35,115 nt of DNA from Candidatus Omnitrophica bacterium CG1_02_40_15. GTDB taxonomy: Bacteria; Omnitrophota; Gorgyraeia; Gorgyraeales; Gorgyraeaceae. The notes under the pieces were generated by a model, which did no database searches, was not told the origin of the DNA, and saw nothing but the letters and a program-made list of their open reading frames with translations. Where the stretch lies: NCBI GenBank assembly GCA_001871815.1, contig MNVP01000085.1, positions 1 through 35,115 of the forward strand, read 5' to 3'. Position 1 is the stretch's first letter, and each line of letters begins with the position of its first letter. Made by a program: the position numbers and the translations under genes. Shown in pieces: positions 235 through 33,683 of this stretch.

Positions 235-263
235 GTAGGGACAGGACAATGTCCTGTCCCTAC
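235..263. repeat. GTAG-type REP palindrome, overlaps greA stop
   Basis: GTAGGGACAGGACA-A-TGTCCTGTCCCTAC, perfect 14-bp arms beginning GTAG. The greA TAG (260-262) lies in it. Confidence 0.85.
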
Positions 264-733
264 CTTGATATTTCTAGTATCTTATATTTCAATACACCCG
301 CAGGAACCCTGATATTGGCTATATCCCCAATTTTACAGCCTAAAAGGGCTTTTCCTACAGGAGAAGAAATAGAAATCTTGCCCTTTTCGTAATCAGCCTC
401 ATCTTCGGTTACCAGCATATAAACTACCTCTTCTTTTGAATCTATATCCACTAATTTTAATTTAGCTCCGATGTACGCCTTATCCGAAGATATATTTTCA
501 TTATCCAGGATCCTGGCTGTCAGGATCTTCTCCTCAAGTTCCCTTATCCTTTTTTCATTTATTGCCTGCGACTGCTTCGCAGAATCATATTCTGCGTTTT
601 CGCTTAGATCGCCCATTTGCCTTGCCTTTTCAAGGGCATTTGCTATTTCCTTGCGTTTTACGGTTTTCAGTATTTTTAATTCCTCTTTAAGTTTGTTACA
701 GCCATCTTTTGTCAAAAAAGTGCCTTCAGACAT
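260..733 (-). CDS. greA: Transcription elongation factor GreA
   Basis: GDLSENAEYDSAK motif, C-terminal ISISSPVGKALLG. ATG 733 has a GGGAGGG SD; the track starts at 745. Confidence 0.97.
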   Translation of the reverse strand: MSEGTFLTKDGCNKLKEELKILKTVKRKEIANALEKARQMGDLSENAEYDSAKQSQAINEKRIRELEEKILTARILDNENISSDKAYIGAKLKLVDIDSKEEVVYMLVTEDEADYEKGKISISSPVGKALLGCKIGDIANIRVPAGVLKYKILEISR

Positions 734-742
734 ATTCCCTCC

Positions 743-806
743 CAAATTTTGCGAAGCAAAATTTGATCCCGAGCCGCCTTAGTTTTTACTATCGAGCGGC
801 GAGGGA
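743..806. repeat. Two adjacent hairpins: GCGAAGC-capped palindrome and a tandem-GA hairpin overlapping alr 3' end
   Basis: CAAATTTTGC-GAA-GCAAAATTTG (743-765); TCCC-GA-GCCGC...GCGGC-GA-GGGA (767-806), which contains the alr stop. Confidence 0.8.
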
Positions 807-1919
807 CCTTTTATAAATCCTTGGAACGCGGTGGCCTATATTGCATAACACCTCGTAAGGTATCGTATTTATAAGCCTGGCCAGTTCTTCCGCTCTTATG
901 ATCTCATCACCCTGGCTGCCTATGAGAACCACCTCATCGCCTACTCTTACATTTTCTAAATGCCCCACATCTACCATGCACATATCCATACAGACCCTGC
1001 CCACTATTGGACAACGACTTCCACGTATTAAAACTTGAGCTTTATTTGAAAAATGCCTTGAATACCCATCGCCATAACCAACAGGTATTGTAGCTATCTT
1101 TGTAAGCTTAGAGGTCATATAAGTCATGCCATAACTTATACTGCGGCCCTTTGGCATTGATTTCAGATAAGTGATCTTTGTTTTTAAAGCGAGGGCCGGC
1201 TTTAAAAGTATATTTTTCATGAGGCTTTCTTTAGGGTATATGCCGTACATCATAAGGCCTGGCCTGACCATATTCATATGGCTATCTTTAAAATTTATAA
1301 GGGCAATGCTATTTGCAGTATGTTTTATAGGTATATATATGTTATTATCCCATAGCTTTTCTATAAGCCGCTTAAAATTCCCTATCTGGTTATAGGTGAA
1401 AACCTTGTCAGCCTCCGCATTTGGAAAATGCGTAAAAATCCCATCTATAATAATATTTTTTAACCCGGCTATTTTTTTTATAAATCCTATTGCCTCCTCG
1501 TGCCAGAATCCAAGACGGCCCATGCCCGTATCTATCTTCACGTGCACCTTTACTTTTTTATTCCTGGACTGGGCAAGCTTGGAAAGCCTCCTAGGGATAT
1601 CCATGTCAGAAACTGTCTGGATTACGTTGAACCTAAGAACGCCTTCTATTTCTTCGGGCAAAATAGCGCCTATGACAAGTATCGGTTTTTGTATCCCTAT
1701 CCTGCGCAATATAGCTGCTTCATCAAGAGATGCAACGCCAAAATAATCAATATAATCCTCAATTGTCTTTGAGACTTCCTTTATCCCATGGCCGTAAGCA
1801 TCTGCTTTTACGACCCCGAGTATCTGGGTATCGCTCTTAACAATATGTCCGACTATCTCCAGATTATGGCGGATGGCATCGAGATCTATTTCTGCAAATG
1901 TAGGCCTGTAGTATTTCAT
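789..1919 (-). CDS. alr: Alanine racemase
   Basis: VVKADAYGHG PLP-lysine motif, KIDTGMGRLG, PVGYGDGY, GRVCMD, TIPYE. Confidence 0.97.
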   Translation of the reverse strand: MKYYRPTFAEIDLDAIRHNLEIVGHIVKSDTQILGVVKADAYGHGIKEVSKTIEDYIDYFGVASLDEAAILRRIGIQKPILVIGAILPEEIEGVLRFNVIQTVSDMDIPRRLSKLAQSRNKKVKVHVKIDTGMGRLGFWHEEAIGFIKKIAGLKNIIIDGIFTHFPNAEADKVFTYNQIGNFKRLIEKLWDNNIYIPIKHTANSIALINFKDSHMNMVRPGLMMYGIYPKESLMKNILLKPALALKTKITYLKSMPKGRSISYGMTYMTSKLTKIATIPVGYGDGYSRHFSNKAQVLIRGSRCPIVGRVCMDMCMVDVGHLENVRVGDEVVLIGSQGDEIIRAEELARLINTIPYEVLCNIGHRVPRIYKRSLAAR

Positions 1920-1935
1920 GTTTATAGCATTGTTT

Positions 1936-1988
1936 TAGCATATAGCGTTTAGCGTATAGAGAAACTAAACGCTATACGCTATCCGCTA
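1936..1988. repeat. Family A heptamer-array hairpin (TAGCGNN)n/(NNCGCTA)n
   Basis: tagcata tagcgtt tagcgta tag-agaaa-cta aacgcta tacgcta tccgcta. Encodes the tsaB end (SG*). Confidence 0.9.
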
Positions 1989-2809
1989 TATTTTACTTGA
2001 CAATCTTCTGGATACAGATATAAAGGACTGAGTTTATCCAGATTTGTTTTTTTAGCTTTTTTGATACTTCGACGGCGCCAAACCGCAGTCTTTAGGCCGC
2101 GAACAGAAGCGCCGCTCAGTATCAACCCTGAGCCTGTCGAAAGGTTGATTTTCGAGAAACCAAGCTTTATAAGATTCCCAGCTCCTGGATACCAGTATTC
2201 TTCAAGCAAAAATGCCGACTGGCGTTTATTTTTTGCCTGCCTGCCGGCAGGCAGGCTTAATTCCGCAAAGGCTTTTACGGAATCTTGATTAATATAATTT
2301 GCTATTTTGTCTCCATAAAGACTTAGCCCATCCCCTAGAAAAACAGAATCTCTTTTTACTTTCTTCAAAAACTTTTCTATGGGCAATAGCAAATAATCTG
2401 ATAACCTCGCTACCTTGCTGCCTTTTCTCCTGTAAATAGCAGCATAAACCTGGCCCCTTTTTGCATCTATTATAGGAATAATATATCTGTCTTTTCCCTG
2501 GGCATTACAAGCAATGGAATCCATGCTAGCCACGCCGATGCATGGCTTCCCTGAGGCTATGCCAAAACCTTTTATCGTGCTGACACCTATCCTTAGCCCG
2601 GTAAATGAGCCTGGGCCAAGGCCTATTATAAAAGCGCCTATCTTATTTATAGGCGTTCTGGATTTTTTTAGGAGCTCTTTTACCTTTGGCACCAGCTGGC
2701 TGGCTTGCCTTCTATCAAGTAAATGAGATTCTTCTCTTATTATATCTTCATCTTCGCTCAATGCAATGCTCAGAAATTTTGAACTTGTATCAATGCCTAA
2801 GATCTTCAA
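1979..2809 (-). CDS. tsaB: tRNA threonylcarbamoyladenosine biosynthesis protein TsaB, with two palindromic in-frame inserts
   Basis: MKILGIDTS, GPGSFTGLRIG, IDAKRGQVY, PLYL. 276 aa, longer than usual; adjacent to tsaE. Confidence 0.93.
   Translation of the reverse strand: MKILGIDTSSKFLSIALSEDEDIIREESHLLDRRQASQLVPKVKELLKKSRTPINKIGAFIIGLGPGSFTGLRIGVSTIKGFGIASGKPCIGVASMDSIACNAQGKDRYIIPIIDAKRGQVYAAIYRRKGSKVARLSDYLLLPIEKFLKKVKRDSVFLGDGLSLYGDKIANYINQDSVKAFAELSLPAGRQAKNKRQSAFLLEEYWYPGAGNLIKLGFSKINLSTGSGLILSGASVRGLKTAVWRRRSIKKAKKTNLDKLSPLYLYPEDCQVKYSG
2061..2149. repeat. In-frame REP-like doublet inside tsaB
   Basis: TTGATAC-TTCG-ACGGCGC...GCGCCG-CTCA-GTATCAA followed by ATCAACCC-TGAG-CCTGT-CGAA-AGGTTGAT. 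Read as INLSTGSGLILSGASVRGLKTAVWRRRSIK. Confidence 0.85.
2235..2292. repeat. Second in-frame palindromic insert inside tsaB
   Basis: Perfect 22-bp palindrome GCCTGCCTGCCGGCAGGCAGGC (2235-2256) plus hairpin ATTCCG-CAAAGGCTTTTA-CGGAAT. Read as INQDSVKAFAELSLPAGRQA. Confidence 0.8.
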
Positions 2810-3209
2810 TGATTACCTTTCTCTTGTTATCGCCTTTTATCTTTAATCTCACAGATATATGCTTTTCTGGCAAAATGGATTTTATCTTTTCCGCCCATTC
2901 TATTACAGTAACGCCGTTTCCATAAATATATTCTTCTATGGCCAGATTTTCTATTTCCTTTAAATCATCCAGCCTGTATAAATCAAGATGGTATAGCGGA
3001 ATTCTTCCATTGTATTCCTTTATCAAAACAAATGTTGGGCTATTTATGCGCTTAGGATCTTTCACGCCAAGGCCTTTTCCAATGCCTTTTGTAAAAGTAG
3101 TCTTGCCGCTTCCCAGATCGCCTGAAAGCGCAATTATATCCCCTGGTCTCAGTTTCCTTGCCAGCTTCTCGCCAATTAACATTGTTTCCTTAGCGCTATT
3201 CGTTATCAT
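2790..3209 (-). CDS. tsaE: tRNA t6A biosynthesis ATPase TsaE
   Basis: GDLGSGKTT Walker A, SPTF, HLDLYRL, IEWAE. Confidence 0.96.
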   Translation of the reverse strand: MITNSAKETMLIGEKLARKLRPGDIIALSGDLGSGKTTFTKGIGKGLGVKDPKRINSPTFVLIKEYNGRIPLYHLDLYRLDDLKEIENLAIEEYIYGNGVTVIEWAEKIKSILPEKHISVRLKIKGDNKRKVIIEDLRH

Positions 3210-3223
3210 GCTTCAATATCATT

Positions 3224-3299
3224 CTTCTCGAATTCGCTCGAAGAATAATATTGTTCGAGCGAATATCCTGACTATACATGTAAGCCCAGTCGAGAACTA
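3224..3299. repeat. Family C element (CTTCTCGA..CGCTCGAAGAATAATATTGTTCGAGCG..AGTCGAGAAC)
   Basis: Core identical to the copy at 23496-23598; the left arm is minimal. Confidence 0.88.
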
Positions 3300-4202
3300 T
3301 TAGAAATGAGTAAACCCACTAGGTTTAATTTTCTCTAATTTCCCATTCTTTCTTGCAAGAAAAAACCCTTTATGTATATCGCGTATTTGACCAATTCTAG
3401 AAAGCCTTGTTTCAAACGGCCATATATCCTCCAACCTATCTGCATGCTTCTCAGGTAATGTGAAAATTAATTCGAAGTCTTCGCCATCCCTCATAGCTGA
3501 ATTAAAATCTATGGCATCCTTAGAAACAGGCATTGTTTTTTCATAGATCACTGCGCCTTTATCGCTTTCTTCTAATATATGCCCCAGGTCAGCTAAAAGG
3601 CCGTCGGATATATCTATCATTGAATTAATCTTAAAATTTTTTACTAAAAACCTCGCTTCTTCAAGCCTAGGAGTAAAATTAAGGTGCTTAAGCTTTATTG
3701 AACCGCCTATATTTCCGGTAACAAATATAGCGTCTTTTTCCTTAGCCTTGCTTCTTAACGTTAAATTTTTTATTTCTACTTCTCCGATAAGCGCAATATT
3801 AATAATTATCTTGTTAGAACCAACTGTATCCCCGCCTACTAAATCAACGCTAAACCTGTCTGCAACTTTTCTTATACCCCTATATATCTCATCAGCGTAT
3901 TTTAAATCCAGAGACCCTGGAAAACCTATTGAAATAACTGCAAATTTAGGTATGCCTCCCATTGCTGCAATGTCGCTTATATTTGAAGAAAGGGCTTTTT
4001 TCCCCACCAATCTAGCCGAAGAACCTTTATAAAAATGTTTCCCCTCTAAGAGCATATCTGTTGTAAAAAGCAGGTATTTATCTTTTGTATATTTTAAAAC
4101 AGCTGCATCATCGCCTATGCCTTTTACAACCCGGTTGGACAATCTTATTGCCTTGCTTATCCTGTTTATAAAATTAAATTCTCCTAAATCTTTTAATCTC
4201 AT
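3300..4202 (-). CDS. thiL: Thiamine-monophosphate kinase
   Basis: GIGDDAA, NISDIAAMGG, GGDT, IDISDGL, GEDFEL. Confidence 0.95.
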   Translation of the reverse strand: MRLKDLGEFNFINRISKAIRLSNRVVKGIGDDAAVLKYTKDKYLLFTTDMLLEGKHFYKGSSARLVGKKALSSNISDIAAMGGIPKFAVISIGFPGSLDLKYADEIYRGIRKVADRFSVDLVGGDTVGSNKIIINIALIGEVEIKNLTLRSKAKEKDAIFVTGNIGGSIKLKHLNFTPRLEEARFLVKNFKINSMIDISDGLLADLGHILEESDKGAVIYEKTMPVSKDAIDFNSAMRDGEDFELIFTLPEKHADRLEDIWPFETRLSRIGQIRDIHKGFFLARKNGKLEKIKPSGFTHF

Positions 4203-5277
4203 AAATGCCTTTTTCAGTTATTATGCCGGAGATCAAGCTGTGAGGAGTAACATCAAACGCGGGATTATAAACCTTTGAATCGATCGGCGCAGTCTGTTTT
4301 GAACCTGTATAAATAATCTCATCTCTATTCCTTTCTTCAATCGGAATATCCTTTCCTGATTTTATATCCTTATCTATAGTAGAGCTCGGGGCTGCTACAT
4401 AAAAAGGGATGCCGTGGTACTTTGCAAGAACTGCAAGGCCATATGTGCCTATTTTATTAGCAGCGTCTCCGTTCCTGGCAATCCTGTCTGCGCCCACTAT
4501 AATTTTTGTAACGCCTTTATTTTTTATGGCGCTGGCTGCCATATCATCGCATATGAGAGTAGCGTCTATGCGCTTCTGGATTAATTCCCACATGGTAAGG
4601 CGCGAACCCTGCATGAGAGGCCTTGTCTCATCAGCGTAAACCTTGAATCTTTTACCCTGTTTCTTAGCTTCATAGATTATTGAAAGAGCTGTGCCCTGTC
4701 CAGCTGTAGCCAGTATCCCGGCATTACAATGTGTTAATATTACATCTCCGTTTTTTATTAATTTGGCGCCGTTTTTTCCTATGGCAACGCACATCAATTT
4801 ATCTTCTTTTAAAATATCCAATGCCTCTTTTAAAATAGCTTTCTTGATTTGCGCTATTGCGTTCCTATATTCTCGACTAGCTTCGTTCACTCGAACAACA
4901 TGTCCCGAGTGAAGTCGAGGGATATTCTTCGAGCGAGGCCAAAGGCCAAGTCGAGAAGTATCAAACCTTTTCTCCATCCTATCCAGAGCCCAGAATAGAT
5001 TTACTGCCGTAGGCCTTGTAGCTCTTAATTTCAAAGAAGCCCTGGCTAAATCTTTTTTAAAACCTCTGAATGTTTTTTCTTTTGAATTAATACCAGCTAA
5101 TGCATATCCCAGGCCAACTGCCACTCCTATTAGAGGAGCGCCTCTTATCTTGAGTTTTTTTATTGCCCCGCATAATGTGTCAATATCCCTGCATTTCACA
5201 TACTTAAGTTTTACAGGAAGCTGTGTCTGGTCTATAAAAACTATATTATTATCTTTCCATTTAATGGGTTCTATCAT
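4174..5277 (-). CDS. mtnA: S-methyl-5-thioribose-1-phosphate isomerase, with ~30-aa palindromic insert
   Basis: IRGAPLIG, RPTAVNL, LTHCNAG, ETRP..QGSRLT, GADRI, NKIGTY, NPAFDVTP. Confidence 0.93.
   Translation of the reverse strand: MIEPIKWKDNNIVFIDQTQLPVKLKYVKCRDIDTLCGAIKKLKIRGAPLIGVAVGLGYALAGINSKEKTFRGFKKDLARASLKLRATRPTAVNLFWALDRMEKRFDTSRLGLWPRSKNIPRLHSGHVVRVNEASREYRNAIAQIKKAILKEALDILKEDKLMCVAIGKNGAKLIKNGDVILTHCNAGILATAGQGTALSIIYEAKKQGKRFKVYADETRPLMQGSRLTMWELIQKRIDATLICDDMAASAIKNKGVTKIIVGADRIARNGDAANKIGTYGLAVLAKYHGIPFYVAAPSSTIDKDIKSGKDIPIEERNRDEIIYTGSKQTAPIDSKVYNPAFDVTPHSLISGIITEKGIYEIKRFRRI
4870..4960. repeat. Family C element in frame inside mtnA
   Basis: TTCTCGACT..CTCGAACAA..[TCCCGAGTGAAGTCGAGGGA]..TATTCTTCGAGCG..AGTCGAGAAGTA, same orientation as 28977-29096. 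Read as TSRLGLWPRSKNIPRLHSGHVVRVNEASRE. Confidence 0.88.
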
Positions 5278-6377: not shown

Positions 6378-6393
6378 CTCTTTGCCAAGTTCA

Positions 6394-6434
6394 AACAACT
6401 TTACAAACCAACAATGTCAAAATGTAAAGTTGTT
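6394..6434. repeat. Intergenic inverted repeat overlapping the CPBP stop
   Basis: AACAACTTTACA-N17-TGTAAAGTTGTT, 12-bp arms. Confidence 0.7.
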
Positions 6435-7458: not shown

Positions 7459-7465
7459 AATAATA

Positions 7466-7496
7466 TAGCGTATAGCGGATAGCGTTTAGCGTATAG
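7466..7496. repeat. Family A heptamer array, single arm
   Basis: tagcgta tagcgga tagcgtt tagcgta tag; no complementary arm. Confidence 0.85.
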
Positions 7497-7499
7497 AAA

Positions 7500-9415: not shown

Positions 9416-9430
9416 ATTTTGCTCCTCCTT

Positions 9431-10963: not shown

Positions 10964-10971
10964 TTCTTTGG

Positions 10972-11019
10972 CAAGACCAGGTCTTGGTCACAGTTTACTG
11001 TGCTCAAGACCTGGTCTTG
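10972..11019. repeat. Palindrome of palindromes between PSP1 gene and metG
   Basis: CAAGACCAGGTCTTG-gt-CACAG-ttta-CTGTG-ct-CAAGACCTGGTCTTG. Each 15-mer is a self-hairpin and the two are mutually complementary. Confidence 0.85.
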
Positions 11020-11022
11020 ATC

Positions 11023-11808: not shown

Positions 11809-11823
11809 ATCTATTGCCTTTCT

Positions 11824-11963
11824 AACTGAAACCACCAATGCATTTTAACATATCGAGAGTGGTTTCAGTTACCCCGAGCAAGCGAAGCGCGTCGAGGGGT
11901 TACCCTTCGACTACGCTCAGGGTAAATGCGCCATATGTTAAAGTGCAATTGTGGGCGCATTTA
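11824..11963. repeat. Composite of four hairpins including a tandem-GA doublet
   Basis: AACTGAAACCAC/GTGGTTTCAGTT; ACCC-CGAG-CAAGCGAAGCGCGT-CGAG-GGGT; TTACCC-TTCG-ACTACG-CTCA-GGGTAA; TAAATGCGCC/GGCGCATTTA spanning the holB stop. Confidence 0.85.
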
Positions 11964-13532: not shown

Positions 13533-13542
13533 AATATCTGAT

Positions 13543-13723
13543 TTTGTGCTGGGGCCATTCGGCACAGAGATGGTTTCGCCGTGCGCTACGGTTTACGGTT
13601 CGTTTTTTATACTGTAGGTAGCCTTGACAGTATAAAAAACTTCGCCGTAACCCCTTGCGCACCTATATTTAAAGAATCCATTATGCCGAAACCTCTCAAA
13701 TGTGCCTCAGGCCCCAGCGCAAA
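13543..13723. repeat. 181-bp nested imperfect inverted repeat between cysS and tmk
   Basis: Nested stems: TTTGTGCTGGGGCC/GGCCCCAGCGCAAA, TTCG-GCACA/TGTGC-CTCA, GGTTTCG/CGAAACC, GTGCGC/GCGCAC, TTACGG/CCGTAA, TTTTTTATACTGT/ACAGTATAAAAAA. Confidence 0.85.
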
Positions 13724-13725
13724 GC

Positions 13726-15599: not shown

Positions 15600-15626
15600 A
15601 TGTACCTCCACTAGAACAGCATGTTA

Positions 15627-15710
15627 TAGCGAATAGCGTATAGCGGATAGCGGATAGGTCTTTTTGCATGGAATTTTTTCTATACGCTATCCGCTCTACG
15701 CTAAACGCTA
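15627..15710. repeat. Family A heptamer-array hairpin with 22-nt spacer
   Basis: tagcgaa tagcgta tagcgga tagcgga tag-GTCTTTTTGCATGGAATTTTTT-cta tacgcta tccgctc tacgcta aacgcta. Supplies the ispD end (SV*). Confidence 0.9.
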
Positions 15711-16405
15711 TAACACTTATTTCTTCTTTTTTCAATAAGTATCTTTGCTAACTCTAAATCTTCTCTTGTCGTAATTTTTATATTGCTGTAAGAACCCATT
15801 ACAATCTTTGGTTTCACCCCGATTCTTTCTACAAGGCTAGAATCATCTGTTGCAATAATTTTTTTCTTCCTGGCAATTTTATACGCCTTTTCTATCAGAT
15901 CCTTTTTGAAAACCTGAGGCGTCTGAGCTTCCCAAAAATATTTCCTTAAAGGGGTATTTTTGATAAAACCATCTTTGCCTACAAATTTCAAAGTAGGCTT
16001 CACAGGAACAGCTGCTACCGCAGCCCTGAACATGGACGCCTCTCTTAATAACGTTTCGATAAGTTCATTTGTAATAAAAGGCCTTATGCCGTCATGGATT
16101 AAAACATAATCTATATTTCCTGAAACAGCCCTTAGCGCGTTGTAAACAGAATCGCTGCGTTCCTTGCCTCCGATCACAAGCCTTGCCTTTTTAATATTAT
16201 ACTTCTCGATTATTTCTTTCCGGGCTTTATTTAATTTATCTTTTCCTACGCTGACCCATATCTCGGCTATATCTTTGTTTTTGGAAAGCGCTATTAAGGT
16301 GCGAGCAAGTATGGGTTTATCGCCAAGAGTTATGTAAGGTTTTTGTATCCTTGATCTTAATCTGGCGCCTGTACCTGCGCTCGGGACAATAGCTGCTACT
16401 CTCAT
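15701..16405 (-). CDS. ispD: 2-C-methyl-D-erythritol 4-phosphate cytidylyltransferase
   Basis: AGTGARL, GGKERSDSV, HDGIRP, QTPQVF, TDD, NIKITT. Confidence 0.95.
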   Translation of the reverse strand: MRVAAIVPSAGTGARLRSRIQKPYITLGDKPILARTLIALSKNKDIAEIWVSVGKDKLNKARKEIIEKYNIKKARLVIGGKERSDSVYNALRAVSGNIDYVLIHDGIRPFITNELIETLLREASMFRAAVAAVPVKPTLKFVGKDGFIKNTPLRKYFWEAQTPQVFKKDLIEKAYKIARKKKIIATDDSSLVERIGVKPKIVMGSYSNIKITTREDLELAKILIEKRRNKCYSV

Positions 16406-16414
16406 AAATTCAAA

Positions 16415-16475
16415 AAGCTATAAGCCGTAAGCTATAAGTTTTAAGCTTAAAACTTATAGCTTATAACTTAAAGCT
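16415..16475. repeat. Family A' heptamer-array palindrome (AAGCTNT type)
   Basis: aagctat aagccgt aagctat aagtttt aagctt aaaactt atagctt ataactt aaagct. 16428-16463 is a perfect 36-bp palindrome. Confidence 0.88.
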
Positions 16476-16490
16476 AAATTTTTTGACTTT

Positions 16491-17504: not shown

Positions 17505-17525
17505 AGCTCCCTTCTATGGTATAAC

Positions 17526-17578
17526 AGCTGGAAGTTTTAAGCTGTAAGCTTTAAGCTTATGGCTTATAACTTAAAGCT
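17526..17578. repeat. Family A' heptamer-array palindrome, second copy
   Basis: agctgg aagtttt aagctgt aagcttt aagctt atggctt ataactt aaagct; same AAGCTT centre and ataactt aaagct tail as the first copy. Confidence 0.85.
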
Positions 17579-17583
17579 GATTT

Positions 17584-18315: not shown

Positions 18316-18341
18316 TTTACCCCCTTTATATTACATGCTAT

Positions 18342-18456
18342 CGCTGAACTACGCAGAACTTAACGCGGAATTACGCTGAAACTACATGCTAATTTCCGCG
18401 TTTTTCCGCGTCTGCTCCGAGTAAAACTAGGAGCAGCTTCTGCGTTATTCCGCGAT
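18342..18456. repeat. Family D decamer-array hairpin (ACGCNGAA units)
   Basis: Four (A)CGC[TAG]GAA units, then four TTC[CT]GCG units with inserted hairpin CTGCTCC-GAGTAAAACTA-GGAGCAG. Matches 31040-31180. Confidence 0.87.
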
Positions 18457-18458
18457 TA

Positions 18459-19208: not shown

Positions 19209-19213
19209 ATTCT

Positions 19214-19290
19214 TAGCGTAGAGCGTTTAGCGTATAGCGTATAGGGATAATAGCTATTATTATCCGCTATACGCTCTACGCTATCCGCTA
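19214..19290. repeat. Family A heptamer-array hairpin
   Basis: tagcgta gagcgtt tagcgta tagcgta tag, palindromic spacer ATAATAGCTATTAT, then tccgcta tacgctc tacgcta tccgcta. Last CTA is the ruvB stop. Confidence 0.9.
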
Positions 19291-20328
19291 AAACAACTCT
19301 TTCTGCGCTTCCTTTTTATACGGCACCTTTAAATGATCGTATGCCAGTTTTGTAACTTCCCTGCCCCTTGGCGTCCGCTTAAGAAATCCTATTTTCAATA
19401 AAAACGGCTCCACGACATCTACTATGGTATCGCTCTCTTCATTCAGGGTTGCGGCAAGCGATTCTATGCCCACCGGCCCACCGTCATAAAAATCAATTAT
19501 TGCTTTCATGACTTTTCTATCTATGTCATCCAGGCCCGCGTTATCTATCCTGTGCGACGCAAGGCCGGCAATAGCAATCTCCTTGTCTACCTTCTTATTG
19601 CCTTTTACTTCGCTGTAATCCCTTACTCTTCTTAAGAGCCTGTTGGCTACGCGGGGCGTGCCGCGCGAACGGCTCGCAATCTCAATAGCTGCGTCTTCAT
19701 TAAGAGGTATATTTAAAAGTTCTGCGGACCGCTCTATTATTTTTACCAGGTCATCCGCCTCATAAAATTCAAGGTGGTAAAACATGCCGAACCTGCTTCT
19801 TAAAGGCGCGCTCAATAATCCTGCGCGGGTTGTAGCGCCGATAAGCGTAAATCTTTTTAAATTGAACTTTATGGTCTTTGCGTAAGGCCCTTTATCTATA
19901 AGAAAATCTATCTGAAAATTTTCCATAGCAGGGTATATAAATTCTTCTACAACCTTTGACAGCCTGTGAATCTCATCGATAAAAAGTATATCTCTCTCGC
20001 CAAGATTAGTAAGAATCCCTATAAGATCTCCTGCCCTTTCTATAGCGGGCCCTGAGGTAGCGGTAATCTTGGCTCCCATCTCGCGGCTTATGATATGGGC
20101 AAGCGTTGTCTTTCCCAACCCAGGGGGGCCTGAAAGCAGAATATGCTCAAGGCCTTCTTTTCTTTTTTTTGCCGCCTTTATTGCGATATTTACATTTTCG
20201 ATTACATGCTTCTGGCCTATAAAATTCTTGAAACTGTCAGGCCTCAAGGAAATATTACATACTGCCTCTTCCTCTGCTTCCTGGCCGGTAATCAGTCGTT
20301 CGCGATCGTCTTTATTATTTTCTATCAT
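19288..20328 (-). CDS. ruvB: Holliday junction branch migration helicase RuvB
   Basis: SLRP, GPPGLGKTT, FIDEIHR, GATTRAG, RGTPR, RTPRGR. Confidence 0.97.
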   Translation of the reverse strand: MIENNKDDRERLITGQEAEEEAVCNISLRPDSFKNFIGQKHVIENVNIAIKAAKKRKEGLEHILLSGPPGLGKTTLAHIISREMGAKITATSGPAIERAGDLIGILTNLGERDILFIDEIHRLSKVVEEFIYPAMENFQIDFLIDKGPYAKTIKFNLKRFTLIGATTRAGLLSAPLRSRFGMFYHLEFYEADDLVKIIERSAELLNIPLNEDAAIEIASRSRGTPRVANRLLRRVRDYSEVKGNKKVDKEIAIAGLASHRIDNAGLDDIDRKVMKAIIDFYDGGPVGIESLAATLNEESDTIVDVVEPFLLKIGFLKRTPRGREVTKLAYDHLKVPYKKEAQKELF

Positions 20329-20338
20329 ATACCTTTAT

Positions 20339-20415
20339 TAGCGTATAGCGTAGAGCGTTTAGCGGATAGGTCTTTTTGCATGGAATTTTTTTTATACGCT
20401 CTACGCTAAACGCTA
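20339..20415. repeat. Family A heptamer-array hairpin with the same spacer as the 15627 copy
   Basis: tagcgta tagcgta gagcgtt tagcgga tag-GTCTTTTTGCATGGAATTTTTTT-ta tacgctc tacgcta aacgcta. Last CTA is the ruvA stop. Confidence 0.9.
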
Positions 20416-21520: not shown

Positions 21521-21528
21521 TATGCCTT

Positions 21529-22311: not shown

Positions 22312-22315
22312 AATT

Positions 22316-22490
22316 AATGAGCGCTTGACTTATGGAGCGAGTAAAACGAGCGAACATAAGTCAATGCGCGAATTAATCCCGCCCTTTTGAATAGCAAGCT
22401 GAGAAACCTTGCTAAAAGGGCGGGATAAGTTCGGACAAATAAGTTACGTCACATACTTCTTGGAATAGGGCTCCGTAACTTATGTCCTCA
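22316..22490. repeat. Family B three-hairpin element, copy 1
   Basis: AATGAG..TTGACTTATG/CATAAGTCAA..CGAATT, then ATCCCGCCCTTTT..AAAAGGGCGGGAT, then TTCGGAC..ATAAGTTACG/CGTAACTTAT..GTCCTCA. Confidence 0.92.
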
Positions 22491-22491
22491 C

Positions 22492-23484: not shown

Positions 23485-23495
23485 ATATAAACATG

Positions 23496-23598
23496 TACTT
23501 CTCGACTCTGCTCTCTTGATATGCTATCGTGACCGCTCGAAGAATAATATTGTTCGAGCGGACGTCATTGCCATACTTGTAAGTTCAGTCGAGAACTA
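23496..23598. repeat. Family C element
   Basis: TACTTCTCGACT-arm1-CGCTCGAAGAATAATATTGTTCGAGCG-arm2-AGTCGAGAACTA. Confidence 0.9.
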
Positions 23599-23605
23599 TC
23601 TGTAA

Positions 23606-26062: not shown

Positions 26063-26078
26063 GATCAAACCCTCCTTA

Positions 26079-26138
26079 TAGCGTTTAGCGTATAGCGGAT
26101 AGGAAAACTATACGCTAAACGCTATACGCTATCCGCTA
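26079..26138. repeat. Family A heptamer-array hairpin
   Basis: tagcgtt tagcgta tagcgga tag-gaaaa-cta tacgcta aacgcta tacgcta tccgcta. Confidence 0.9.
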
Positions 26139-26146
26139 ATCATTTA

Positions 26147-27196: not shown

Positions 27197-27208
27197 GAAT
27201 CCTCCTTC

Positions 27209-27376
27209 AATGAGCACTTGACTTACGGAACAAGCATAGCGAGTGAACGTAAGTCAATGCGCGAATTGAATCCCGCCCTTTTGAATAGCAAGTTGAGAAA
27301 AATTGCTAAAAGGGCGGGATAAATTCGGACAAATCACTTACGGAAACCATAGGTTTCCGTAAGTGATGTCCTTATT
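27209..27376. repeat. Family B element, copy 2
   Basis: Same architecture; third hairpin ATCACTTACGGAAACC-ATA-GGTTTCCGTAAGTGAT; abuts the mcsA stop. Confidence 0.92.
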
Positions 27377-27872: not shown

Positions 27873-27885
27873 TATTTCCTCCTTC

Positions 27886-28091
27886 AATGAGCACTTGACT
27901 TACGGAACAAGCATAGCGAGTGAACGTAAGTCAATGCGCGAATTGAATCCCGCCCTTTTGAATAGCAAGCTGAGAAAAATTGCTAAAAGGGCGGGATAAA
28001 TTCGGACAAATCACCCAGCACCTTTTTAATATTCAGCATCTTTTCTTTAAAAACTTTAAATACATAAAAGGTGCTGGGTGATGTCCTCATT
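27886..28091. repeat. Family B element, copy 3
   Basis: One mismatch to copy 2 over the shared part; third hairpin ATCACCCAGCACCTTTT..AT-rich loop..AAAAGGTGCTGGGTGAT. Confidence 0.92.
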
Positions 28092-28963: not shown

Positions 28964-28976
28964 ATCTCCTCCTAAT

Positions 28977-29096
28977 GTTCTCGACTCGCTTCGTACATTC
29001 GCTTCGCTCAGTACTTCTTTCGGTCGCTCGCTCGAACAATATTAATATTCTTCGAGCGGTCACGAGAGCATATCAAGAGAGTAGAGTCGAGAAGTA
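28977..29096. repeat. Family C element, inverted relative to 23496
   Basis: Arm GTCACGAGAGCATATCAAGAGAGTAG is the near reverse complement of arm1 at 23508-23533. The other arm contains a nested TTCG-CTTCG-CTCA unit. Confidence 0.9.
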
Positions 29097-29098
29097 AA

Positions 29099-29773
29099 TT
29101 ATATTATTCTCCCATCCTTCATTTCTACAATTCTATCCGCTCTTCGCGCTATTTCTTTATCGTGAGTAACAATCACAATCGCTGTTTTATTCTTTTTATT
29201 AAGATTAAACAATATATTCAATATCTCCAGGCCCATTTCAGAATCCAGGTTACCTGTAGGCTCATCGCACAAGAGCACCTTTGGATTATTTATCAAGCCC
29301 CTTGCTATAGCAACTCTCTGCTGCTCTCCTCCTGAAAGTTCGCTCGGCCTGTGGCGCATTCTTTTCCCAAGCCCTACATCTTCCAGTAAAACCTCAGCTC
29401 TATTTTTCGTCGTTCGTCGTTCGTCGTTCGTGTTTCGTATGCCTATCAGACTAGGCAGCATTACATTTTCCAATGCTGTAAAATCAGGGAGCAGGTAATA
29501 AAATTGAAATACAAATCCTATTTTTTGATTTCTAAACCTGGCTCTTTTAATATCATCCAGGCTGTAAAAATCAGAGTTGTCCAGAAATACTTTACCCGAG
29601 CTTGGCTTATCTATGCCGCCCAATATATGCAAAAGCGTTGACTTACCGGCTCCTGAAGGCCCTACAATTGTAATTACTTCATCTTTTCTTAATTCTAAGC
29701 TAACCCCCCTTAAAACATGCAGCTCTCTTTTGCCATCTTTATATATCTTATGTACATTATCAGCTCGTAACAT
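29099..29773 (-). CDS. lolD: Lipoprotein-releasing ABC ATPase LolD
   Basis: GPSGAGKS, IGFVFQF, LSGGEQQRV, DEPTGNLD, VTHD; downstream of lolC/E. Confidence 0.88.
   Translation of the reverse strand: MLRADNVHKIYKDGKRELHVLRGVSLELRKDEVITIVGPSGAGKSTLLHILGGIDKPSSGKVFLDNSDFYSLDDIKRARFRNQKIGFVFQFYYLLPDFTALENVMLPSLIGIRNTNDERRTTKNRAEVLLEDVGLGKRMRHRPSELSGGEQQRVAIARGLINNPKVLLCDEPTGNLDSEMGLEILNILFNLNKKNKTAIVIVTHDKEIARRADRIVEMKDGRII
29406..29440. repeat. Heptamer array inside lolD
   Basis: ttcgtcg ttcgtcg ttcgtcg ttcgtgt ttcgtat (5x7 nt), read as IRNTNDERRTTK. Confidence 0.85.
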
Positions 29774-29778
29774 AATAT

Positions 29779-29831
29779 TAGCGGATAGCGGATAGAAAAA
29801 CTATACGCTATACGCTCTACGCTAAACGCTA
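29779..29831. repeat. Family A heptamer-array hairpin
   Basis: tagcgga tagcgga tag-aaaaa-cta tacgcta tacgctc tacgcta aacgcta. Confidence 0.9.
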
Positions 29832-29835
29832 TCTT

Positions 29836-31017
29836 TTACTCATATCTCAGAGCTTCCACTGGCTCCATCTTAGCTGCCTGCCATGACGGATAAAGCGTTG
29901 ATAATAAACTTATCAGTATTGCCGCAGCTATTACAATTATTGAATCCGACAGCTCCAGATTAACAGGCAGCCTGTCTATGTAATAAATGTCTTTTGGCAA
30001 TTTTATAAATTGATATGTCTTTAATAAGTAACATAGGCCAAAACCTCCTATGGCGCCAATAATCGTTCCTGCGAAACCTATCAGAAAACCATCCAGCATA
30101 AATATCTTTCTTATGCTTTTATTATTAGCTCCTATTGATTTAAGGATGCCTATATCTTTTGTCTTTTCCATAACCATCATGATGAGAGCGCTGGCTATAT
30201 TAAAGCACGCCACAACCACAATGAGCGCAAGTATTATGAACATGGTTATTTTCTCTAGTTTCAGGGCGCTGAATAGATTTTTATTCAACTCTGACCAGCT
30301 TCTTACCCAGTAATTAAACCCTATCTGCTTCTGAACATCTTTTTTTATGCGGTCTGCGCTGTTTACATCATCCACCCGCACGCCTATGCCGCCTGCTACA
30401 TTGCCGGTAGCATAAAAATTCTGGGCGCCTTCAAGATTTGTAAATATAAGGCTCATGTCATATTCAAACATGCCTGAATTAAAGACACCCGCTACTTTAA
30501 AAAGCTTTGGTTTAGGATCCGCGGCAGATATCAGGGAAATTGTATCTCCTATCCTTAAACCCAGCCTAGAAGAAAGCTCTTTTCCTATCAAGACTGTATC
30601 CTTTTTAAGATTGAGCGTTCCTGATTCCATGTATTTTTGTATATTAGTGACATCTTTTTCTCTCGCAGAGTCTATGCCTCTTAATATTACGCCAAGGACT
30701 TGTTCGTCCTGCCTTATTAGGGCCTGGCCGTTCAGAAAAGGAGAGCTTGCTTTTACGTGCTGTATCTTATTTATCTCGTTCACAAGGCCGTTATAATCAG
30801 GGATGCCGCCTTCTTTTTCAATTATTATATGCGAATTTGTGCCGACTATCTTTTCACGAAGGTCTTTGTCAAAGCCGCTCATAACAGCCAACACCACAAT
30901 AAGGGCTGTTACACCCACAGCCACGCCCATTATCGAGATAAAACTTATAATGGAGATAAATTTTTCTTTGCGCTTCGAGACTAGATATCTAAAACTAATC
31001 CACAATTCGTATGGCAT
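29836..31017 (-). CDS. lolE: Lipoprotein-releasing ABC permease LolC/E
   Basis: ISFRYL, AVMSGF, VACFNI, EKTKDIGILK, PVEALRYE; lysS-lolC/E-lolD order. ATG 31017 preferred; the track start lies in a repeat. Confidence 0.88.
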   Translation of the reverse strand: MPYELWISFRYLVSKRKEKFISIISFISIMGVAVGVTALIVVLAVMSGFDKDLREKIVGTNSHIIIEKEGGIPDYNGLVNEINKIQHVKASSPFLNGQALIRQDEQVLGVILRGIDSAREKDVTNIQKYMESGTLNLKKDTVLIGKELSSRLGLRIGDTISLISAADPKPKLFKVAGVFNSGMFEYDMSLIFTNLEGAQNFYATGNVAGGIGVRVDDVNSADRIKKDVQKQIGFNYWVRSWSELNKNLFSALKLEKITMFIILALIVVVACFNIASALIMMVMEKTKDIGILKSIGANNKSIRKIFMLDGFLIGFAGTIIGAIGGFGLCYLLKTYQFIKLPKDIYYIDRLPVNLELSDSIIVIAAAILISLLSTLYPSWQAAKMEPVEALRYE

Positions 31018-31039
31018 CTTATAGTTAGCTTCCGTGTTT

Positions 31040-31180
31040 AATCGCGGAACCACGCGGAAGCTGGCCTTCACTTCGTTCAGGCCAGACGCTGAACTACGCG
31101 GAAATTCGAGTTCAGTTTCCGCGTTTTTCCGCGTCAGTTGCGAGTGAAACGAGCAACTGCTTCTGCGTATTTCCGCGATT
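31040..31180. repeat. Family D decamer-array hairpin, full symmetric copy
   Basis: AATCGCGGAA..ACGCGGAA[CTGGCCT-TC-AC-TTC-GT-TC-AGGCCAG]ACGCTGAA..ACGCGGAA / TTCCGCGT..TTCCGCGT[CAGTTGC-GA-GT-GAA-AC-GA-GCAACTG]TTCTGCGT..TTCCGCGATT. Confidence 0.9.
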
Positions 31181-32623
31181 TCATGCTTCTGGTTTTAATT
31201 GCGGGAACAAAATCACATCCCGTATAGACGGCTGGTTTGCAAAAAGCATTACCATCCTGTCTATCCCTATACCAAGCCCGCCCGCGGGCGGCATTCCGTA
31301 TTCCATGGCCCTTACAAAATCCTCATCTATTTTCTTTACGCCTTCCTGGCCCACTAACTGTTCTTCAAATCTTTTTTTCTGCTCTATTGGGTCATTGAGC
31401 TCTGAATAAGCGTTTGCAATCTCCATGCCTCCCATGAAAAGTTCAAATCTGTCTGTTAAAAGAGGATTGTCTTTTTTCCTTTTTGCGAGAGGGCATAACT
31501 CTGCGAATAAGTCTATTACAAAAATAGGCCTATCGCCTGTCTCAGGCTCAAGCATTTCTGTTATGATATTGGCTATCTGCGAACGTGTAATGTCCTTGGC
31601 TTTAAAATCCACGCCTTTAGCATGAAGCTTTTCGATCCATTCCTTGGAAGAGTCATCAGGGTTAATGTCAAATCTCTTTTTGATCTCTTCTGCAAATGAC
31701 CATCTCGGCCATGGCGGAGTCAAGTCTATAACCACATCTGCGAATTTTATCTTATTAGTCCCCAGGACTTCGTTCGCAACAAAATTAAAAATCTCTTCTG
31801 TAAGCTGCATCATGCCCTGGCAGTCAGAATAAGCTTCATATATTTCTATCATTGTAAATTCAGGATTATGCCTTATTGAAATGCCTTCGTTCCTGAAATT
31901 CCTATTAAGCTCATAAACTTTATCAAATCCGCCAACTAATAATCTTTTTAAATATAATTCCGGCGCAAGGCGCAGAAATAAATCAATACTAAGAGCATTA
32001 TGATGCGTCTTAAAAGGCTCTCCTGCTGCACCTCCTGCCATTGATTGCATCATAGGGGTTTCAACTTCCAAAAATCCCTTTTTATCTAAAAGCTCTCTTA
32101 TTTTTGAGATGATGCGGCTTCGAACCTGGAAAACCTTGCGCACATCTTCATTTACTATCAAATCCACATATCTCTGCCTGTATCTTGTATCCACATCTTT
32201 CAAGCCATGCCATTTTTCAGGTAAAGGCCTTAGGCCTTTGCTTAGAATTGTAATCTTTTCTGCGTTTATAGTTATCTCGCCAGTATGTGTTTTAAAAATC
32301 TTTCCCTCAACACCTAATATATCTCCTATATCTAGTCTTTTAAATATATTAGCATATATATCCTTGCTTATAATATCTGCCTTAATATATACCTGAATCC
32401 TGGAACTTGCGTCTCTTAAATCAAAAAAACTAGATTTCCCATGTTCTCTTAATGCAGTGATGCGGCCTGCTGTCTGGACAGAATCGCCTTCTTTGGCATT
32501 CTTAAGCATTGTTTCTATACTGCAATGCTTATCAAATCTTCTCCCATACGGCTCAATGCCTATCTCTTTGAGAGCATTTAACTTATCAATGCGTTGTTTC
32601 ATGAATTCATTCATCTCTTCCAT
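31181..32623 (-). CDS. lysS: Lysine--tRNA ligase (class II)
   Basis: LPEKWHGL, RYRQRYVDL, EVETP, FRNEG, HNPEF, YGMPPAGGLGIGIDR. Confidence 0.98.
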   Translation of the reverse strand: MEEMNEFMKQRIDKLNALKEIGIEPYGRRFDKHCSIETMLKNAKEGDSVQTAGRITALREHGKSSFFDLRDASSRIQVYIKADIISKDIYANIFKRLDIGDILGVEGKIFKTHTGEITINAEKITILSKGLRPLPEKWHGLKDVDTRYRQRYVDLIVNEDVRKVFQVRSRIISKIRELLDKKGFLEVETPMMQSMAGGAAGEPFKTHHNALSIDLFLRLAPELYLKRLLVGGFDKVYELNRNFRNEGISIRHNPEFTMIEIYEAYSDCQGMMQLTEEIFNFVANEVLGTNKIKFADVVIDLTPPWPRWSFAEEIKKRFDINPDDSSKEWIEKLHAKGVDFKAKDITRSQIANIITEMLEPETGDRPIFVIDLFAELCPLAKRKKDNPLLTDRFELFMGGMEIANAYSELNDPIEQKKRFEEQLVGQEGVKKIDEDFVRAMEYGMPPAGGLGIGIDRMVMLFANQPSIRDVILFPQLKPEA

Positions 32624-32625
32624 AG

Positions 32626-32680
32626 AGATCCTTCGTCGCGGAGTTTACACTGAGCGAAGCGAATGTGCTCCTCAGGATGA
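32626..32680. repeat. AGATCCTTCG..CTCAGGATGA tandem-GA element with nested unit, directly upstream of lysS ATG
   Basis: ATCC-TTCG...CTCA-GGAT enclosing CAC-TGAG-CGAAG-CGAA-TGTG, which contains GCGAAGC. Confidence 0.82.
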
Positions 32681-32792
32681 GCAGCCGACATTACAAGAAA
32701 ATCGCTTTCAGCGATAACCCTAATATACGATTTTCAGTGGTTAGGAAAGTGTTTTATACTTTCCTATACCATAAAAACTCCTCAACTCCTCA

Positions 32793-32822
32793 ATTATATA
32801 TTATTATGCTATATAGTGTCAA
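32793..32822 (-). promoter_or_regulatory. Sigma70-type promoter of the lysS gene block
   Basis: Minus strand TTGACA (32822-32817)-18 nt-TATAAT (32798-32793); both hexamers are exact consensus. Confidence 0.8.
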
Positions 32823-32846
32823 TAGAAATAGGGTAAAAATAGGGCG

Positions 32847-32979
32847 AGATCCTTCAGATGCTCCTGTTCGTCGCATCTTCAGGATTAATTCGCACTTATC
32901 AGTTACGGATTTCAAAGAAACCCGTAACTGATGTGCTCATTAAAAAACCGCGTAGGCACCACATACATCCTATGCGGTT
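32847..32979. repeat. Three adjacent hairpin elements, including a solo family-B half unit
   Basis: AGATCCTTC-AGATGC..GCATCT-TCAGGAT; AATTCGCAC..ATCAGTTACGG/CCGTAACTGAT-GTGCTCATT; AACCGCGTAGG/CCTATGCGGTT. Confidence 0.8.
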
Positions 32980-33479: not shown

Positions 33480-33499
33480 ATTCTTATCCCTCCTTTTAA

Positions 33500-33528
33500 A
33501 ATATATCACATCCTATTATTCATGTCAA
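33500..33528 (-). promoter_or_regulatory. Sigma70-type promoter of the TA operon
   Basis: TTGACA-17 nt-TATATT with extended TG. Confidence 0.7.
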
Positions 33529-33668: not shown

Positions 33669-33683
33669 TGAAAGAAAAGGCTA

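Follow-up and report, generated by a model that had tools for sequence, protein, structure and literature searches.

The 22 spacious junctions of the greA-lysS gene block of Candidatus Omnitrophica bacterium CG1_02_40_15 probably hold non-autonomous, hairpin-forming mobile elements of about ten unrelated families, which would have spread mostly after the split from the closest sister species. The stretch of DNA analysed, hereafter the window, is 35,115 nucleotides long and is the entire contig C87 (MNVP01000085.1) of a metagenome-assembled genome (MAG) of 1,169,003 bases in 92 contigs, with 39.6% G+C, 79.9% completeness and 0.1% contamination, for a genome of ~1.4 Mb. A previous inspection of the letters and open reading frames (ORFs) of the window, hereafter the sequence-only reading, had proposed that every spacious junction of this block holds a palindromic element.

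Repeat elements in the junctions of the block

All genes between greA (260-745) and lysS (31181-32623) lie on the minus strand. With the longest ORF taken as the gene model, 9 of the 31 greA-lysS junctions are overlaps or gaps of 15 bp or less and the other 22 measure 34-203 bp. The repeat census was a self-BLAST of the whole MAG in which a segment was counted if at least 5 other copies existed. It returned 457 repeat segments covering 2.7% of the 1,169,003 bases, and Louvain clustering assembled them into ~16 families of 7-82 segments each (82, 61, 59, 32, 29, 29, 25, 19 and so on). A census repeat segment was present in 21 of the 22 spacious junctions, and the one junction without any, holB-ricT (11839-11937), is filled by a 141-nt element with 31-nt inverted ends. 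By family, the junction elements are distributed as F4 (seven), F5 (two), F0 (three), F2 (three), F7 (two) and single occurrences of F3, F6, F11, F12 and the 141-nt element, and each of them matches 2-44 places in the MAG.

These counts bear out the sequence-only reading as regards its 31 junctions, nine tight and 22 filled (21 by census repeats and one by the 141-nt element, J8 holding only a single arm), and the Louvain families reproduced its tally of 7/2/3/3/2 and five singles. The further elements that it had placed beyond greA and upstream of lysS were also recovered, as an F1 repeat of the repetitive extragenic palindrome (REP) type on one side and an F13 repeat together with an F2-like hairpin, outside the block, on the other. 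Counted genome-wide, its families are dispersed at many loci, with 10-82 segments each, and are not single-locus.

Of the 22 junction elements, all except J28 and J30 were folded and compared with shuffled sequences, and 18 of these 20 beat their shuffles with z values of -2.5 to -9.2. The exceptions are J8 (z +0.28), where only one heptamer arm and no palindrome is present, and J29 (z -1.55), though the latter contains an 18-nt inner palindrome. Predicted fold energies of the junction elements range from -14 to -64 kcal/mol. In the whole genome, 262 of 560 co-directional gaps of more than 15 bp hold a repeat by a crude ORF model. The window, with 21/22, is therefore denser in repeats than the genome's own rate (binomial P 1.4e-6).

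The elements of the window are as follows, with the strand where one was assigned and the z value of the fold.
233-264: F1 REP of the GTAGGGACAGGACATTGTCCTGTCCCTAC type, downstream of greA and outside the block (census; family of 61 segments)
~744-809, minus: J1, alr to greA, F11 (z -2.5; empty site in G011, G005, G004 and G001)
1936-1991: J2, tsaB to alr, F4 heptamer palindrome (z -6.9; tsaB ends at a TAG in the first arm)
3224-3299, minus: J4, thiL to tsaE, F0, TTCTCGACT ... TTCGAGAAG (census, family and fold)
4870-4957, minus: F0 copy within the mtnA ORF, in-frame read-through (compared with G011)
6393-6434: J7, F3 hairpin of the AACAACTTGACA type (z -3.5)
7465-7496: J8, tatD to CPBP, lone F4 arm, a half element with no hairpin (z +0.28, folded as 7459-7499)
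10972-11021: J11, ricT to metG, F12 doublet, also in G011 (z -8.8)
11823-11963: J12, holB to ricT, 141-nt element with 31-nt inverted ends (z -7.1; 2 places in the MAG)
13548-13725, minus: J14, cysS to tmk, F6 (z -7.0; same junction in 5/5 genus relatives compared)
15622-15715: J16, ispD to ispF, F4 palindrome with a 23-nt loop insert (z -9.0)
16413-16481: J17, PIN/TRAM to ispD, F5 heptamer palindrome of TAAGyyN units (z -6.8)
17532-17579: J18, mlaD to PIN/TRAM, F5 palindrome (z -2.9)
18339-18458, minus: J19, mlaF to mlaD, F7, CGCGGAA 11-mer arrays and an inner hairpin (z -7.6)
19213-19291: J20, ruvB to mlaF, F4 palindrome (z -6.3)
20339-20415: J21, ruvA to ruvB, F4 palindrome with a 23-nt loop insert (z -5.4)
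22316-22491, minus: J24, F2 three-hairpin element (z -7.5; G011 and G007 have the same site with another central module)
23496-23598, minus: J25, clpC to the next gene, F0 with 9-nt inverted ends (z -4.0; bridged by independent contigs)
26077-26139: J26, mcsB to clpC, F4 palindrome lying between the TAA stop and AGGAGG (z -5.1)
27209-27371, minus: J27, mcsA-like gene to mcsB, F2 (z -9.2)
27886-28090, minus: J28, F2 with the left hairpin swapped for another (census and alignment)
28978-29093, minus: J29, F0 (z -1.55, folded as 28964-29098)
29779-29832: J30, F4 palindrome of 4+2 units (alignment of relatives)
31016-31180, minus: J31, lysS to permease, F7 reaching into the over-called GTG start of the next ORF (z -3.1)
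32728-32777: F13 repeat upstream of lysS, outside the block (census and family)

In the order of transcription, the block starts with lysS, a MacB/FtsX-type permease, an ABC ATPase and a class-IV aminotransferase, followed by a McsA-like UVR protein, McsB, ClpC and a protein without family, then by MlaE, RuvC, RuvA, RuvB, MlaF, MlaD and a PIN/TRAM-like protein, then by IspD, IspF, CysS, Tmk, HolB, RicT, MetG, NifS and TatD, and it ends with a CPBP protease, an Fe-S protein, MtnA, ThiL, TsaE, TsaB, Alr and GreA.

Filled and empty sites in relatives

The block is syntenic in 10 relatives, 7 species of the genus and 3 of the family, which served as the comparison set, and in a tree of 12 proteins the window is sister to the pair (G011, G005), with 94-95% amino-acid identity. 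In the 10 relatives, most of these junctions are overlaps or measure less than 20 bp, and the positive gaps sum to 2209 bp here versus 990 bp in G011 and 835 bp in G005. At 15 of the 22 filled junctions, the family found here occurs at that junction in 0/10 relatives, and in the alignments the insertions fall cleanly between stop codon and AGGAGG, as at mcsB-clpC. The fillings of the other seven junctions are shared: G004 has those of J30 and J19, G011 and G007 those of J28 and J24, G011 that of J11, G005 that of J7, and each of the five genus relatives compared at J14 has the filling of that junction. The occupant of a given junction also changes with the species, J30 being filled by F4 here and in G004 and by F0 in G009, J21 by F4, F1 or F3, J19 by F7 or F11, J8 by F4 or F0, and J17 by F5 or F12. 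At J30, the F4 copy of G004 has the same unit order as here, with 3+4 units versus 4+2. Empty sites thus exist and the junction sequences are not conserved in relatives, as a sister alignment proposed in the sequence-only reading was meant to reveal. Consequently, the private insertions and the different families per junction refute fixed orthologous regulatory structures and show a turnover of mobile DNA.

The element at J14 (cysS-tmk) is present in G011, G005, G004, G001 and G009 and belongs to a multi-copy family, F6, of 25 segments without Rfam match; the choice is between an old insertion and a conserved structured RNA.

In G004 (contigs C11, C3 and C33), F0 fills consecutive junctions of mur/fts-like cell-wall/division clusters and mreB/C/D-like clusters, judged by ORF starts only, so that the greA-lysS block is not alone in having filled junctions. 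The family-level relatives G017 (J28 and J30) and G013 (J11) were seen to have different periodic palindromes of their own, for example of AGCTCAT heptamers; the same architecture comes back there in other sequences.

Kinds of element

The sequence-only reading had assembled all families into one repeat system, which was not borne out. At least three short families are REP-like and lie beside Y1 genes, F0, F2 and F7 resemble MITEs (miniature inverted-repeat transposable elements), and F4 and F5 are of the STRR kind (short tandemly repeated repetitive sequences).

F1 and F9 are ~30-nt GTAG...CTAC hairpins, and the regular expression GTAGGG-N14-26-CCCTAC has 103 matches genome-wide. With 61 segments on 36 contigs, F1 has the attributes by which REPs are recognised, being a short imperfect palindrome with terminal GTAG, in high copy and mostly extragenic. 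The sequence-only reading had stated that no REP-associated tyrosine transposase (RAYT) is encoded in the window. This is true of the window only: a PF01797 search found no Y1 transposase gene there, and the genome has two RAYT-like Y1 genes on contigs C3 and C63 (PF01797, 39.7 and 29.1 bits, above the cut-off). The sole NCBIfam match of both proteins is the REP-associated tyrosine transposase, at 56 and 63 bits, below the cut-off of 80. Inverted F12 halves are located on both sides of the C3 gene and likewise of its counterpart in G011 (G011:C3). An F1 copy lies just upstream of the C63 gene and another one inside it (G000:C63:2604-2635), where it is translated in frame (...VRTEQCSVPT...). 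F3 adjoins, on one side, a third class of Y1 gene at 7 of the 30 Y1 loci examined, in 7 genus genomes. The REP-like families F1, F3 and F12 would thus form a first kind of element, probably moved via single-stranded DNA by the RAYT-like HUH Y1 transposases which they flank.

A second, MITE-like kind would comprise F0, F2, F7, F11 and the single 141-nt element, all of 90-200 nt with inverted ends and inner hairpins. For F0, 51 full copies are bounded by TTCTCGA(C/G) and (C/G)TCGAGAA, terminal inverted repeats such as define MITEs, around an interior of 50-170 nt with an inner palindrome. To its left the flank is mostly TAG and to its right mostly G(T/A)(T/A), with no clean duplication; the 141-nt element at J12 may have an (A/G)TTA target duplication. 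F2 consists of three hairpins, of which the outer two are conserved and the central one is exchanged between copies, and F7 of CGCGGAA 11-mers around an inner hairpin. F0 was found in 12 of 31 genomes and is patchy in the genus: at least 32-37 matches were counted in this genome, G003, G004 and G006, whereas the closest sisters and the majority of the others have 0-8. Elements of this kind were presumably moved in trans by transposases absent from the 80%-complete assembly. No repeat of more than 300 nt with the ends of F0, F2 or F7 was detected in the MAG as a possible parent (the assemblies being incomplete), and the F0 clusters of G004, G003 and G005 are flanked by ordinary genes only. GIY-YIG genes, which the sequence-only reading had suggested as candidates, were considered as mobilisers on account of a small GIY-YIG gene among F0 copies in G004 (G004:C33). 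This lead was dropped because the two small GIY-YIG genes of the present genome have no repeat segment within 700 nt.

One F0 copy is located within a gene, mtnA (4174-5277, minus strand). It is 88 nt long, retains both inverted ends and corresponds to about residues 107-136 of a product of 367 aa, versus 339 codons in G011, so that ~28 extra residues result from an in-frame insertion of the kind known for Rickettsia palindromic elements (RPEs).

The third kind, F4 and F5, would be palindromes of ~4+4 heptamer units. From the 21 doublets parsed, the typical build of F4 is four AGCG+triplet units, an A/T loop and four inverted units, with the triplets TAT, GAT, TTT and TAG accounting for 82 of 100 units in the left arms and 85 of 98 in the right arms. 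Unit order varies among copies, and there are sub-lineages with the same arm order (for example C1:11530, C71:17086 and C87:19212). F5 has an F4-like build with TAAGyyN units, and both families have ~20-25 dispersed copies each. The F4 pattern gave 45 overlapping matches here and 0 in G004, G011 and G009, whereas three other families of the class had 60, 14 and 13; in all, it occurs in 17 of 151 genomes, the reversed-pattern control occurring in 0. For the F5 pattern, the count was 44 here, against 1 in G004 and none in the remaining 11 genus genomes; within the class, 5 of 151 genomes have it. Heptamer palindromes with other units exist in other lineages, namely AGCTCAT units at J28 of G017 and TAAGTyG units in G024, G162 and G043. 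Among the matches listed for the whole collection, F4-type palindromes occur in several contigs labelled Omnitrophota and in one labelled Parcubacteria, and single F4 arms in contigs labelled Atribacterota. The underlying F4-arm scan returned at least 120 stretches, including unrelated tandem arrays in many phyla, and is not a measure of distribution. Two F4 copies, at J16 (15612-15700) and J21 (20329-20412), carry a ~23-nt loop insert, AAAAAATTCCATGCAAAAAGACC, which resembles inserts with AAAATCCATGG in the loops of two other palindromes, one an F5 copy and the other of a third heptamer type with TGTAAAG units (G000:C70:5804-5896 and G000:C66 near 6748).

Six F4 strings had no match in the full-text literature, a search that did not cover supplementary files, and among the matches listed nothing in the literature concerned Omnitrophota repeats. 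The suggestion that the system is undescribed was accordingly retained for the sequences and abandoned for the kinds.

Fit of the elements to the space between stop codon and ribosome-binding site

In 21 of the 22 junctions, the repeat overlaps the upstream stop codon or begins no more than 9 nt from it, and at J1, J2 and J12 the upstream ORFs terminate inside the element. In the ancestral state of J1, the TAG of TAGGAGG was both the alr stop and part of the greA ribosome-binding site (RBS). F11 now stands before TAGGAGG; alr continues for six or seven codons within F11 before reaching a new TAG, and TTTGGGAGG closes the element seven bases before the greA ATG. At J2, the ancestral state is an ATGA overlap and tsaB now stops at the TAG of the first F4 arm. 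At J12, where the genes ancestrally overlapped by 28 nt, the 141-nt element sits within the former holB tail and the C-terminus of HolB is remodelled. At J31, the stop arises at the element boundary and the true ATG of the permease lies ~55 nt inside the over-called ORF; in relatives, this junction is tight, with a 49-nt overlap (extrapolated start) or 1-2 nt from the stop to the aligned ATG.

The heptamer palindromes have a stop in each unit, and since 7 is not a multiple of 3, these stops fall in all three frames. Stops in the three frames were found within 32 nt of the element end at 38/38 strand-ends for F5 and 20/38 for F4, compared with 1.9% of random genomic 32-mers and 0-4% for other families. 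The core copies of F11 (window 744-809; G000 contigs C7, C13, C44 with two, C66, C69 and C91) all end, 8/8, in CAAAATTTG, followed directly by GAGG or GGAGG and a start codon. In 6 of the 8, the upstream gene stops where the element begins or just ahead of it, and in the window copy it stops inside the element; one copy precedes a gene starting MAKEKFERKK (EF-Tu-like). F11 either carries or targets an RBS. Its position and the stop-bearing ends of the elements suggest an adaptation to junctions.

The idea of the sequence-only reading that the elements target the space from stop to RBS is supported insofar as they hug that space; targeting itself is indistinguishable from a selection filter in a genome with ~92% ORF coverage. 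Since the genome is so gene-dense, only insertions between stop and RBS would survive. The ends of the elements would start at the upstream stop or supply it, three heptamer units would cover all frames and F11 would bring a Shine-Dalgarno sequence. By these stop-bearing ends and the Shine-Dalgarno sequence of F11, formerly overlapping genes can be split, as at J1, J2 and J12. Transcription probably still runs through the block, in which most junctions now have a stable hairpin.

Identity as intrinsic terminators was ruled out, as no terminator site on the sense strand coincides with a junction element. Terminator-like sites (a G+C-rich stem and a T run) number 24 versus 16.2 +/- 5.2 in shuffles and are not enriched, and none was found at junction elements on the sense (minus) strand. 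A promoter scan gave no enrichment at elements. Rfam 15 returned 0 matches in the window at gathering score; at E<=1 there were 5 matches, all of them far short of that score: four to microRNA-precursor models and one to sok.

Alternative explanations

Several results weigh against mobile spread. No mobiliser was found for F0, F2, F4, F5, F7 or F11, and the MAG assembly contains no multi-copy insertion sequence. F4/F5 arrays were present in 0/47 Y1 loci (~+/-1.5 kb; F4-rich genomes included), F0 and F7 in 0/30 Y1 loci of the genome itself and of the genus, and F2 gave only 2 weak matches near the C63 gene; 7 further Y1 matches had no locus, and the genomes are MAGs. G140 has 14 F4 matches and no PF01797 match, in an assembly only 76% complete. 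Alignments of filled and empty sites gave no unambiguous target-site duplication for F0, F2 and F4. In Logan contigs from 4 DNA runs, joints were observed only between same-family copies (for example 18381->31114, two F7 copies) and an empty allele across an element in no contig, short contigs breaking in the palindromes and being silent on excision. The F4 copies are not simple master copies, as their arm triplets match in 13/94 pairs versus 0.19 expected by chance; F4 stems therefore always carry mismatches. F6 at J14 is old and common across the genus, and not all insertions are therefore recent. Finally, F0 (34 to 7) and F11 (11 to 0) are co-oriented with the genes, which could reflect function as well as a filter, orientation being scored relative to transcription with replication direction not separated.

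This co-orientation is one of the observations that would be expected if the elements were operon punctuation selected by the host, mobility only delivering RNA hairpins that stabilise upstream mRNA, set processing sites, or tune or uncouple translation of the next gene. The near saturation of the window (21/22 versus 262/560 genome-wide), the invariable position of F11 directly before GGAGG and a start codon, the strong predicted folds (-14 to -64 kcal/mol) and the filling of consecutive junctions by F0 in the cell-wall/division and mre clusters of G004 (ORF starts only) are consistent with such a role, and a function in transcript stability or translation coupling has been proposed for the cyanobacterial STRR hairpins (PMC2670836). 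However, at 15 of these junctions the sister species, whose proteins are 94-95% identical, have the same genes with overlaps or less than 20 bp between them, and the hairpins are therefore not needed. Moreover, unrelated families occupy one junction in different species, the orientation bias of F2, F3 and F7 is not significant, and Rfam gave no match at gathering score, only generic hairpins below threshold. Host-selected punctuation is thus considered unlikely, and mobile insertion remains the preferred explanation. For F4 and F5, one may also suppose that they were never transposed and grew in place in A+T-rich junctions through replication slippage and hairpin-templated repair, with units converging. 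The shuffled unit order among copies, the non-complementarity of the arms at variable positions, the difference by whole units between orthologous copies (J30, 4+2 here versus 3+4 in G004), the other heptamer palindromes of like build in G017, G024, G162 and G043, and the heptamer array in the coding loop at 29406-29432 would agree with this. Such growth is nevertheless distinctly improbable, as the empty sites of the sister species have no seed heptamers, the ~4+4 build with an A/T loop is fixed, sub-lineages share arm order, the same four unit types recur in distant genomes with a patchy, burst-like distribution, and ~20-25 dispersed copies per family arose in one species only.

That repeats were mis-joined into the junctions during assembly or binning is hardly credible. 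The MAG is indeed fragmented (92 contigs) and 79.9% complete, palindromes are hard for short-read assemblers, and Logan contigs break in many elements. Against this, Logan contigs from runs of two studies, labelled groundwater metagenomes, have 0 differences to the window, and one contig (22568-23861) bridges the filled J25, so that the elements are not a binning artefact. Furthermore, the flanking reading frames are intact and syntenic with 10 genomes, and related elements stand at other junctions of independently assembled sister genomes. Contig ends within 60 nt of a repeat segment number 16 of 184 versus ~9 expected, and assembly breaks are thus not mainly at repeats. Beyond the mobile insertion favoured here, a less probable possibility is that F4, F5 and their look-alikes form a separate, undescribed class of mobile 'junction cassette', independent of RAYT, defined by build (~4+4 stop-bearing units and an A/T loop) and not by sequence, and spread by trans-acting machinery that recognises this build. 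The class would cross phyla, as F4-type arrays are present in Parcubacteria- and Atribacterota-labelled contigs too. If so, new sequence families of the cassette could be born and burst within a single species, and cassettes together with F11-type elements would turn coupled overlapping genes into hairpin-separated ones in very short evolutionary time.

Comparison with known repeat systems and significance

Two papers describe a GTAG-tagged REP super-family with RAYT and multiple REP families per genome (PMC3733652, PMC3116915), and REP ends that supply TAG stops to flanking ORFs, with some REPs intragenic (PMC3733652). Like the REP and REPIN systems with RAYT of E. coli and Pseudomonas, F1 and F9 are high-copy GTAG hairpins, F1, F12 and F3 adjoin Y1 HUH genes, several families coexist in the genome, element ends provide TAG stops and intragenic copies occur. 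Unlike them, the host is an omnitrophotan with a genome of ~1.4 Mb, the Y1 proteins fall short of the NCBIfam cut-off for RAYT, and F3 and F12 have no visible GTAG tag. Only 2 of the 22 junction elements belong to REP-like families, with one more beyond greA.

Bacterial MITEs include Correia/NEMIS of Neisseria, RUP and BOX of S. pneumoniae, and ERIC. F0, F2, F7 and the 141-nt single resemble them in being non-coding, 90-200 nt long, dispersed and intergenic, with inverted ends, inner hairpins and tens of copies, and in being probably co-transcribed with their neighbours. They differ in that no parent insertion sequence with the same ends and no clear duplication were found, and in the modular composition of F2.

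The STRR units of cyanobacteria include CCCCAGT, TTGGTCA and CAACAGT, and small dispersed repeats are reportedly nested in cyanobacterial heptamer arrays (Elhai et al. 2008). STRR heptamer hairpins are described in heterocyst-forming and filamentous cyanobacteria, for example at hupS-hupL, with transcript stabilisation or translation coupling as the proposed role (PMC2670836). F4 and F5 are likewise tandem 7-bp units capable of forming hairpins between operon genes, at 9 junctions of the window, and a few of their loops hold a small insert. Their units (AGCG with TAT, GAT, TAG or TTT, and TAAGyyN) and their phylum are different, and they are STRR-like, not members. The regular 4+4 build, the species-private bursts of ~20-25 copies and the stop in every unit may also distinguish them.

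The mycobacterial interspersed repetitive units (MIRUs) of Mycobacterium tuberculosis are direct-repeat minisatellites located between operon genes, where they interact with the codons at which the neighbouring genes stop and start. The position at junctions is alike; a MIRU is not a palindrome, and neither its sequence nor its host is related. Like F0 in mtnA, the RPEs of Rickettsia enter genes in frame, again with unrelated sequences and hosts. Taken together, the block is an extreme multi-family instance of known bacterial repeat kinds. What is new is the host phylum, the unusual degree and recency of junction saturation for a genome of ~1.4 Mb, and the regular, stop-laden, species-private heptamer palindromes without identifiable transposase.

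The Omnitrophota are uncultured and small-celled, with small genomes of a sort usually thought to be streamlined; the genomes of the relatives sampled span 0.9-2.8 Mb. Here, at least 15 insertions would have been gained in 31 housekeeping junctions during ~5% protein divergence from the sisters, a natural, dated experiment on the invasion of operons by hairpins, on the junction remodelling that essential operons tolerate and on the later use of the elements. By comparing filled with empty junctions across the 11 syntenic genomes, the limits of an insertion can be read exactly, which is seldom possible for REP-type elements. With the heptamer palindromes, the STRR phenomenon reaches beyond cyanobacteria, and since these palindromes burst in a single species, they provide a way into the long-standing question of how arrays of this sort originate and move.

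Other features of the window

The window has no tRNA genes. Beyond lysS, at 33001-34665, four ORFs (83, 85, 170 and 113 aa) are without NCBIfam match at E<=1e-6. At the opposite contig end (1-101, minus strand), just past the F1 REP, an ORF starts with MEQVNCTTKAGKYKHLTERDRYRLEGYL, whose likeness to a transposase N-terminus is a guess only. Upstream of lysS by ~170 nt, a perfect sigma-70 consensus (TTGACA, 18 nt, TATAAT; 32793-32822, minus strand) is a likely promoter of the block. Within the ABC ATPase gene (29099-29773), a 27-nt (ACGAACG)n array at 29406-29432 codes for a variable surface loop, IRNTNDERRTTKN; the array belongs to family F8, which has 17 segments genome-wide, and the relatives have an unrelated stretch of the same length in its place.

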